The translations under genes and the position numbers were made by a program. Below, piece after piece: positions 42,942 to 44,305 of a stretch of DNA of 64,000 nucleotides. Numbering within the stretch: position 1 is the stretch's first letter; every line of letters begins with the position of its first letter. Origin of the DNA: Octopus sinensis. Its lineage: Eukaryota. The notes under the pieces were generated by a model. The model did not search any database. It saw nothing but the letters and a program-made list of their open reading frames with translations, and had not been told where the DNA came from. The stretch is taken from NCBI RefSeq assembly GCF_006345805.1, contig NC_042998.1:167462001-167526000 (forward strand), given 5' to 3'.

Positions 42942-44305
42942 GGCGCAGGAGTGGGTGTGTGACAAGAAGCTTGATTCCCAACCACGTAGTTCCAGGTTCA
43001 GTCCCACTGCGTGGCACGTTGGGTAACTGTCTTCTACTCGGGCCGACCAAAGTCTTGTGAGTGGATTTGGTAAACGGAAACAGGAAGAAGTCCGTCGTAT
43101 ATCTATATCTATCTATCTATCTATCTATCTATCTATCTATCTATCTATCTATCTATCTATCTATCTATCTATCTGTCTGTCTGTCTGTCTGTCTGTCTGT
43201 CTCTCTCTGTGTCTCTCTGTCTCTCTCTCTCTCTCTGTATATATATATATATATATATATATATATATATATATATATATATGTGGTGTGTGTGTGTGTG
43301 TGTGTGTGTGTGTGTGTGTGTGTGCGTGTGTTGTTCAAACGATGAATAGCGTTGCGTAAACCATGGTCCGTTTTGATCTCTTACTTTATTATCATCTTAT
43401 AATCATCTCATAATAATGACTTTTATGACTCGTATTACTACCTCAGTCAATCTAAATGTATATATTTGTCGTTACATGTCATAAATAGCCTTTTTTTATT
43501 TGCAATGTGCATTTTCGTTGATTTTTCATATTTTACCCTTACATTTCCACGTGTATTTTACATTTTCTTTTCGTAACATATTTCTACTATATATATATAT
43601 ATATATATATATATATATATATATATATATAGCATTAATAAATCTCCGAACGAGATGTAAACAGTAACCGCTCGACAACGTAAAGTGTACTAGCCATCTG
43701 AATGTGGCTAGCCACTGGGGGTGGGTGTTACTGACGCTTTTAGCCCCAGGAGATCGACGTCTCCAGCTGGCCTTAGACACAATTTTTGTGCCCTTATGAT
43801 ATTTGCAAAGGGAGGTCATCCTCCCTTGAAAACCTAAGTGACGAGAGGCAAAAACCTTGAAACTATAGTCCGTATGTATCACTTAGGTTTTCGAGGGAGG
43901 ATGACCTCCCTTTGCAAATATCATAAGGGCACAGAAATTGTGTCTAAGGCCAGCTGGAGACGTCGATCTCCTGGGGCTAAAAGCGTCAGTAACACCCACC
44001 CCCAGTGGCTAGCCACATTCAGATGGCTAGTACACTTTACGTTATATATAATATATATATATATATTATATATATATATATATATATATATATATATGCA
44101 TATATGTATTTGTGTGTTTGTCAGACCTCCAACATCGCTGACAACCGATGTTGGTGTGTTTACGTCCTCGTAACTTAGCGGTTCAGCAAAAGATACCGAT
44201 AGAATAAGTACTAGGCTTACAACAACTAATTTCTGGGGTCGATTTGTTCGACTAAAGGCGGTGCTCCAGCATGGCCGCAGTCAGATGACTGAAACAAACA
44301 AACGA
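42942..44305 (+). mobile_element. OR2-like SINE split at its internal microsatellite
   Basis: Head at 42942-43100, tail at ~44105-44305. Confidence 0.65.
43630..44043. mobile_element. Fold-back pLTR-type element with a truncated hammerhead in the loop
   Basis: 165 bp arms 43677-43841 / 43879-44043 (2 mismatches). Junction and loop read TGACGA-gagg-caaaaa-cctt-GAAA-ctatag-TC. Confidence 0.8.

Follow-up and report, generated by a model that had tools for sequence, protein, structure and literature searches.

A fold-back insertion in the Octopus sinensis genome, likely of Penelope type, and a bias of copy ends toward the hammerhead-like region of its repeat

The 64,000-nucleotide (nt) stretch of Octopus sinensis DNA analysed here (referred to as the window: contig NC_042998.1, positions 167,462,001 to 167,526,000, forward strand; all coordinates given below are those of the window) contains an inverted repeat at 43633–44043, which consists of two head-to-head, 5′-truncated copies of a 354-nt repeat (family A) lying within (TA)n. 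This fold-back is likely an ordinary Penelope-type insertion of a retrozyme-like repeat, and its junction falls on the conserved box of a hammerhead-like motif. When copy ends were mapped across the genome for family A and for a second, unrelated family (family B, 508-nt unit), the breakpoints were found not to be uniform: the ribozyme region is favoured in both families, and the box itself is a preferred stop in family A only. The ribozyme hairpin influences the point at which copying stops but does not bring about the inversion; head-to-head arms are present at 32 of the 60 loci sampled for family A and at 37 of the 60 for family B, with junctions spread all along the units. The best explanation overall, and one that we regard as probable, is a Penelope-type insertion of two complementary DNAs (cDNAs) joined head to head, with the stops of the two copies biased by the ribozyme hairpin.

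The arms of the fold-back, placed by an inverted-repeat search combined with unit mapping, lie at 43677–43841 and 43879–44043 (165 nt each, 99% complementary, with 37 nt between them). With the family A unit numbered from the base after the GUC of the hammerhead-like motif, BLAST of the unit resolves the whole element into (−)219..9 followed by (+)323..354,1..173, with a 3-nt overlap, TGA. From left to right, a (TA)n microsatellite at 43586–43632 (read directly, and the likely target) adjoins a tail at 43633–43676 on the minus strand, corresponding to unit ~219 to 174 and carrying the long-type 3′ end; the tail belongs to the left arm only, as unit 9..219 aligns to 43841..43631 and the other arm ends at unit 173. 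The left arm (43677–43841, minus strand) is an antisense copy of unit 173 to 9, and the right arm (43879–44043, plus strand) is a sense copy of unit 9 to 173 that terminates in the short-type 3′ end ...ACGTT, beyond which a (TA)n-rich microsatellite, also read directly, forms the right flank (44044–44098). The loop between the arms (43842–43878, plus strand) comprises unit 326–354 and 1–8; from the alignment of canonical units to the Rfam model Hammerhead_1, it contains, in order, the CGA of the box, stem II (GAGG/CCTT), GAAAC, TATA (short stem III), GTC and the 3′ strand of stem I (CGTATG). The left arm ends in the letters ...AAGTGA and the loop starts with CGAGAGGC, at a site where the canonical unit reads ACGTTGACGAGAGGC. 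The TGA at 43839–43841, in which the two BLAST pieces overlap, is therefore common to both copies, serving as the UGA of the UUGACGA box and as the complement of UCA at unit 9–11. These results confirm what the initial annotation had stated from the letters of the window: that the left arm, ending in GTGA, supplies the TGA of the box, that the 37-nt loop holds the remainder of the motif without the 5′ strand of stem I, and that the 5′ ribozyme is, by sequence, disabled.

Apart from itself, the arm has a single match in the window, to a weak, old fragment at 61240–61307. Elsewhere in the genome, the same ends and the same junction recur at a locus on another contig (L003), the flanks of which are not colinear with those in the window. 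The L003 arms have nine variants relative to both window arms in common, together with five single-arm differences, so that either the junction formed twice from different source copies or gene conversion keeps the arms alike. In a separate case, one fold-back that includes a 24-nt GT-rich junction filler is present twice, 1246 nt apart (L092 at 1493–1678 and 2739–2924, and L112), indicating a local duplication of the whole insertion.

The family A arm is present in high copy, with 1586 candidates genome-wide (40 of which were scored) in the 2.72 Gb and 13,516 contigs searched. The tandem nature of the repeat is evident at one locus, where it forms an array with a period of 354 nt (4.0 copies, 96% matches) and where each of the four full units contains the hammerhead-like motif; the GC content of the unit is 43.2%. 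The motif comprises GAAA, a GUC triplet and three helices in the type I order, with a stem I of 6 base pairs (bp), a stem II of 4 bp and a short stem III. Canonical units align to positions 1–45 of 45 in Hammerhead_1 (RF00163) with 25.5 and 24.3 bits (E = 8.7e-4 and 2.2e-3 in 758 nt), relative to a gathering score of 34. Among the 45 intact copies at the 60 family A loci mapped, the box reads TTGACGA in 42, and the other three read TTGATGA, TTGGCGA and TTGACAA. At the gathering score, there were no Rfam hammerhead matches in the whole 64-kb window and none in four loci; in E-value mode, there was none among the best 150 of 302 window matches, none was returned for the 43633–44043 fold-back alone, and none at E ≤ 10 for the other window elements or for a regular-expression candidate at 16675–16610. 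Positions 3 and 8 of the hammerhead core pair in the active fold; the family A core (UUGACGA, loci L060–L119) has U at position 3 with G at position 8, and the core of a third family, family C (UUGACAA, loci L052 and L054), has U at position 3 with A at position 8.

Samples for end mapping were drawn by seed. For family A, the seed was an 18-mer close to the 3′ end, with 440 exact matches genome-wide (and none for its reversed control), and the first 100 matches in genome order led to the 60 mapped loci; for family B, a seed located only in long-type arms has 339 matches, of which the first 68 listed form 64 clusters, and the first 60 of these were taken. Genome-wide mapping was confined to these two families, the copies of family C being too diverged for exact ends.

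The architecture of the sampled copies is that of the window element. The 3′ ends of family A copies lie at unit 173 ± 5 or 218 ± 7 (83 usable copies), and the 5′ ends are scattered over the whole unit. There are 33 head-to-head pairs at the 32 family A loci, as compared to a single tail-to-tail pair, and 25 of the 33 combine one long with one short outer end, none being short with short, one long with long and seven atypical. Similarly, the 37 family B loci hold 38 head-to-head pairs and no tail-to-tail pair, with 22 pairs of long and short ends, no short/short or long/long pairs, and 16 with an atypical end. Overlaps at the junctions of the 33 family A pairs are mostly 0–3 nt, in agreement with the microhomology that had been proposed for the junction in the window, where the shared bases are TGA. 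A (TA)3 string is present within 14 nt after 47 of 88 family A 3′ ends, relative to 129 of 2054 background 14-mers (6.3%), and after 58 of 78 family B 3′ ends, relative to 67 of 1540 (4.4%); any target-site duplication is unreadable inside (TA)n. A fold-back or miniature inverted-repeat (MITE-type) DNA transposon was considered and rejected, as the arms are copies of tandem units, the inner ends vary by locus and the outer ends are unequal.

This layout is familiar from Penelope-like elements (PLEs), for which the available passages of PMC8557442 describe 5′ truncation, partial tandems, an inverted 5′-truncated copy at the 5′ end, a 30–40-bp tail at one end and (TA)n targets. The same passages report that the inverted layout is also found in PLEs without hammerheads, and they describe the mechanism by which the inverted ends and the tail arise as unresolved. 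Tandem hammerhead repeats have been described as non-LTR (long terminal repeat) retrozymes and linked to PLEs, and those of animals have been proposed to be non-autonomous PLE derivatives (PMC7229834 and 10.64898/2026.07.22.740005 for the former and 10.64898/2026.07.22.740005 for the latter, in the parts of these sources available). Candidate PLE proteins are present in the O. sinensis genome: 147 matches to GIY-YIG, all above the Pfam cut-off, were obtained from the 150 candidates scored out of 5029, and RVT_1 is followed by a C-terminal GIY-YIG in one frame at two loci (L186 and L187; Pfam). Many of the GIY-YIG loci, L186 and L187 among them, have a 781-amino-acid open frame around the GIY-YIG match and a 3′ region with CAC/CTA-rich simple repeats, which suggests a young, possibly active Penelope-like family.

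To compare breakpoints along the unit, each copy was treated as a cDNA begun at the 3′ end and extended toward the 5′ end, and the ends in each region were set against the copies passing through it. The rearranged duplicate locus L112 was dropped, identical duplicates were collapsed and only canonical 3′ ends were used, leaving 83 family A and 76 family B copies. In family A, the box with 2 nt on either side (unit 320–330, 11 nt) contains 12 of the 83 5′ ends, relative to 1.97 expected from exposure (hazard ratio 6.95, p = 6.5e-7), and the excess persists against a flat distribution (11 of 354 nt; p = 1e-5) and for the box alone (322–328: nine ends, ratio 7.9, p = 4.9e-6). The 12 ends lie at 320, 321, 322 (two), 323, 326 (two), 327 (two), 328 (two) and 330; of the 54 copies that reach 330, these 12 stop before 319 and 42 continue past it. 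Inspected by eye, all 12 junctions adjoin flanking sequence or an inverted arm, and no two of them share partner coordinates, which marks them as separate events. The remainder of the motif shows no excess, with two ends in stem II, three between GAAAC and GUC, and one at unit 1–8, and the whole motif (316–354) contains 16 ends (ratio 2.4, p = 0.003). An apparent cluster of family A 5′ ends exactly at unit 1 proved to be an artefact of undetected short pieces, as exact extension moved these ends to 336–347 or elsewhere. In family B, the whole motif (435–508) contains 14 ends (ratio 2.5, p = 0.0034), with five at unit 502–508, some of them in near-perfect palindromes centred on the predicted cut site, and none at unit 1–5. 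Fold-backs in which one arm ends in the ribozyme region make up 12 of 33 family A pairs and 12 of 38 family B pairs. A literature search, which was not exhaustive, found no publication that describes a preference of junctions for the ribozyme.

RNA folding suggests what the family A stops may have in common. RNAfold predicts a helix between unit 1–47 and 276–321 in both the minimum-energy and centroid folds, and also when the unit is folded as a circle; the linear unit folds at −107.8 kcal/mol (z = −4.19), and none of 100 shuffled sequences folds as well. In a dimer-like template, 276–321 pairs with a 1–50 segment with a mean probability of 0.88. The predicted helix amounts to stem I extended to ~45 bp, with the hammerhead-like motif at its tip, and it ends at 321, with the hot spot at 320–330; family B has no comparable extension of stem I. 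The likely barrier in family A is, on these predictions, the ~45-bp extension of stem I beside the box and not the catalytic fold.

The course of events that we favour is as follows. The fold-back would arise by target-primed reverse transcription of the Penelope type, its two cDNA ends being joined via the 3-nt overlap TGA. Each end of the target DNA would prime a cDNA, perhaps with one RNA as the template for both and two fixed TA-rich sites as the starting points, an arrangement that would explain the rule of one short and one long outer end. Each cDNA would stop somewhere along the template, and the two cDNA 3′ ends would then anneal by 0–3 nt, each serving as template for the other. As the predicted helix 1–47/276–321 begins at 321, synthesis in family A would tend to break off next to the box; copying of one partner strand may free 276–321 to pair with the 1–47 segment of the upstream unit, presenting a fresh helix at the box. 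In family B, the preferred stop would instead be at the base of a short stem I, 6–9 nt 3′ of the predicted cut site. A more far-reaching proposal, which we offer tentatively and rate well below the course of events itself, is that the template's own ribozyme-tipped hairpin sets the positions of abortion and that, in every inverted insertion, a single RNA serves both arms, each target strand priming at a fixed site of its own.

Several observations weigh against this reading, in whole or in part. The samples span the first four or five large contigs and comprise only copies that keep the exact seed. The hot spot at the box was not replicated in family B, where 441–451 contains two of 76 ends (p = 0.17) and where a second sample, drawn with a seed on the cut site (27 matches, 24 loci and 27 seed-bearing copies, with three loci common to the first sample), has two of 27 ends in the same interval. 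The family B ends concentrate instead 3′ of the predicted cut site, at unit 6–9 (eight of 76, ratio 16), an interval that was picked post hoc. The same holds for the interval 42–46 in family A, the point of first entry into the helix, which has four ends (ratio 3.15, p = 0.043); as the other foot of the helix, it is nonetheless consistent with the idea of a helical barrier. By the time an enzyme that travels from 3′ to 5′ arrives at 321, one strand of the helix has been copied, so the barrier assumes that the RNA zips up again or pairs anew with an upstream unit. The one-sided tail exceeds the published 30–40 bp in both families, at 47 nt (family A) and ~100 nt (family B). BLAST of eight loci with reverse transcriptase and GIY-YIG domains (from the 150 of 5029 candidates scored) against units A–D revealed no nucleotide similarity, so that none of these PLEs is linked to family A. 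Finally, core position 3 is U in all 45 intact family A copies and C in none, where the type I hammerhead pattern, CUGANGA, has C; with this substitution and a score below the Rfam gathering value, the family A motif is best described as hammerhead-like and may not cleave, and the single 5′ end at unit 1–8 among 83 copies gives no sign of the run-off signature of cleaved templates.

In the light of these results, the picture drawn in the initial annotation stands in part. Its hammerhead is present in layout, but scores 25.5 bits against a threshold of 34 and has U, never C, at position 3. The enrichment of breakpoints at the ribozyme that it anticipated is seen at the family A box and across the whole ribozyme region in both families, but not at the family B box, and 71 of the 83 family A ends lie outside the box and its 2-nt margins. 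Its proposal that the reverse transcriptase stalls in the ribozyme fold and thereby produces the inversion holds for the structure-linked stopping bias, but not for the inversion, which is independent of the ribozyme and has junctions all along the unit.

Among the other ways in which such junctions could form, the one that fares best, although we consider it unlikely, is the snap-back of a single cDNA, in which one cDNA stops, folds back via a few complementary bases and copies itself, so that both arms derive from one molecule. The end of the cDNA in the window (the complement of UGA at 323–325) can pair with its own complement of UCA at 9–11 to leave a 37-nt loop; near-symmetric pairs are found in family A (134/135, 227/233 and 102/109) and in family B (59/59, 17/22 and 124/118), and the near-perfect family B palindromes centred on the predicted cut site (L154 and L164) are also as expected from such a process. 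However, an arm copied in this way cannot outlast its template, whereas in 25 of the 33 family A pairs one arm extends 47 nt beyond the other at the outer end; a strict pairing of short with long outer ends cannot stem from one cDNA copying itself. Snap-back also predicts that the short-ended arm reaches further 5′, which fits 16 pairs and fails in eight (counted by hand), and many pairs are strongly asymmetric, 76/18 and 175/326 being examples.

A second alternative concerns the hot spot alone, and seems to us slightly less likely again: that unit 320–330 marks the 5′ ends of RNAs, from a transcription start or a processing site, and not stalling of the enzyme. The transcription start of Penelope and Chlamys-3 is placed in the pseudo-LTR in the available passages of PMC8557442, the family A hot spot is spread over ~10 nt, as start sites often are, and it appears in single copies abutting (TA)n (L073, L087 and L108) as well as in fold-back arms. 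Against this, nothing seen here points to a promoter or to RNA ends of this kind, and most templates extend further, since 42 of the 54 copies with sequence at 330 also run past 319.

The formation of palindromes at the DNA level without reverse transcription, by template switching at a fork or by repair of a hairpin-capped break in fragile (TA)n, is very improbable. Tracts of (TA)n are prone to breakage and template switching, and the junction in the window has a short overlap; but the outer ends are fixed at two unit positions at dozens of unrelated loci in two unrelated families, the pairs are head-to-head rather than tail-to-tail (33 versus one in family A and 38 versus none in family B), and the inner ends vary as 5′ truncations do. 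That junctions are evenly spread and the three cases in the window are due to chance is barely credible: with about one-third of fold-backs having an arm that ends in the ribozyme region, three of four in one window are unremarkable, and family B lacks the box effect, but the concentration of 12 of the 83 family A ends within 11 of 354 nt (p = 1e-5 flat, p = 6.5e-7 with exposure) and the ribozyme-region excess in both families (p = 0.003 and 0.0034) speak against it.

Penelope-type insertion from two cDNAs, with stops biased by the ribozyme hairpin, can be compared with three known systems. The complex insertions of PLEs are alike in their 5′ truncation, partial tandems, inverted 5′ copy, one-sided tail, (TA)n setting and hammerhead motif in the repeated end (PMC8557442, available passages). 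Family A differs from them in having no reading frame, a length of 354 nt and a tail of 47 nt (~100 nt in family B) instead of 30–40 bp, and neither a preferred 5′ end beside the ribozyme nor the strict short/long rule is mentioned in those passages. The metazoan non-LTR retrozymes, in the parts of PMC7229834 and 10.64898/2026.07.22.740005 available, share with family A short tandem units (~150–450 bp) with one type I hammerhead-like motif each, a low GC content, an RNA predicted to be highly self-paired and a proposed dependence on PLEs. They are expressed as self-cleaved, circular RNA, where for family A only the self-pairing is predicted; they differ further in that position 3 of the family A core is U and not C, that the family A motif falls below the Rfam threshold, and that most family A copies are short dispersed stubs and fold-backs, not arrays. 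In LINE-1, twin priming, as put forward by Ostertag and Kazazian in 2001, reportedly gives rise to 5′-inverted insertions. That model likewise has two cDNAs from two target strands that meet head to head via a few shared bases at variable junctions; in contrast, the two arms in family A span one and the same sequence, either because their template is repetitive or because both start near the 3′ end, so that the product is a hairpin, and their outer ends are two fixed internal sites instead of a poly(A) tail and a random internal site.

The inverted ends and one-sided tails of PLEs are an open question, with a mechanism described as unresolved in the available passages of PMC8557442, and short non-coding passengers such as family A leave many simple, datable junctions with which to approach it. 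Models of integration must explain two regularities, the pairing of one short with one long outer end and the structure-linked stops beside the ribozyme. Three modest new clues to this unsolved mechanism emerge here: the hot spot in family A, the rule of short with long ends and the junction that recurs. If abortion were indeed set by the hairpin and both arms primed on a single RNA, thousands of non-coding stubs would constitute a natural record of PLE integration, preserving the inverted pseudo-LTRs, the tail on one side only and a junction that recurs at the hammerhead box. For annotation, hairpins of this kind in (TA)n are to be read as retroelement scars, neither as microRNA genes, despite several sub-threshold matches to Rfam microRNA families, nor as DNA transposons.

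Expression was considered using sequencing data. No sequencing run recorded as RNA was found to hold the element. In the contigs of four runs guessed to be RNA, pieces of the family are covered and none bridges the junction in the window, a loose end at 43839 being canonical unit sequence; for a family of several hundred copies, contigs cannot show editing.

Two further fold-backs in the window have junctions in or near a hammerhead-like motif. The first belongs to family B, a 508-nt tandem family with 1669 genome candidates, the RNA sense of which is the minus strand of the window. Its long arm (48801–49511, minus strand, by BLAST) runs from unit 170 to 1, through a whole unit from 508 to 1, and then from 508 to 476; the short-type 3′ end at 48801 adjoins (TA)n, and the 5′ end at unit 476 lies inside stem II of the second hammerhead-like motif. 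The inverted arm (49511–49708, plus strand, by BLAST) covers unit 65 to 272 and has a long-type 3′ end, followed by (TA)n. The complete copy of the motif, at approximately 48963–49044 on the minus strand, was delineated by eye as GGACCTTG CTGAAGA, a long interrupted stem II, GAAAC, CAATTGG and TC / CAGGGTAC, and family B returned no Rfam hammerhead match at E ≤ 5. The second fold-back belongs to family C, which is older (761 genome candidates, 70–82% identity to other copies) and the canonical copies of which match Hammerhead_HH9 weakly, with 19.9 bits (E = 0.42) and 17.9 bits (E = 1.8). A family C copy at 63650–63824 (minus strand, by eye, end approximate) keeps at its 5′ end only the CAA of the box UUGACAA, and its inverted arm lies at approximately 63825–63917 on the plus strand, where query positions 3–70 match 63917–63850 at 87% and 63825–63849 was assigned by eye against canonical copies. 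Our own regular expression for hammerheads gave nothing near 49511 or 63822; as it requires a paired base of stem II, it is blind to family B.

These assignments bear on the pattern that the initial annotation saw in three elements, a junction on the box. Its placement of the 49511 inversion inside stem II of the second motif copy is correct, the minus-strand copy stopping at unit 476, and the start it put just before stem II at ~63822 corresponds approximately, by eye, to the family C stop at ~63824. The junction accordingly lies on the box in families A and C but not in family B, where it lies in stem II, as had also been written. Its counter-example at 286–899 is upheld as well. This element, at 279–915, has a like layout, with 1.1 tandem units (period ~483 nt), an inverted arm (819–906 copies 405–492), flanks of (TA)n and outer ends of unequal extent; away from its junction, at ~545–600, the minus strand contains a hammerhead-like string that was noted by eye and has no Rfam match.

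Other inverted repeats were noted in the window. A hairpin at 21840–22264, flanked on either side by (TA)n, has a 15-nt loop between 205-nt arms (98%) and a sub-threshold match to MIR6027 (66 bits, relative to a threshold of 95), and may be another retroelement fold-back rather than a microRNA gene. Dozens of further sub-threshold matches to microRNA families (mir-297, mir-466, mir-3149 and mir-1277) fall on GT/AT microsatellites of the window and are composition artefacts. A hairpin at 12519–13302, inside GT/AT microsatellites, has 365-nt arms (98% complementary) around a 54-nt centre, which forms a small palindrome of its own. The inverted repeat at 20868–21582 has 237-nt arms (84%) and a 241-nt centre with telomere-type, CCCTAA-like repeats at ~21150–21200.

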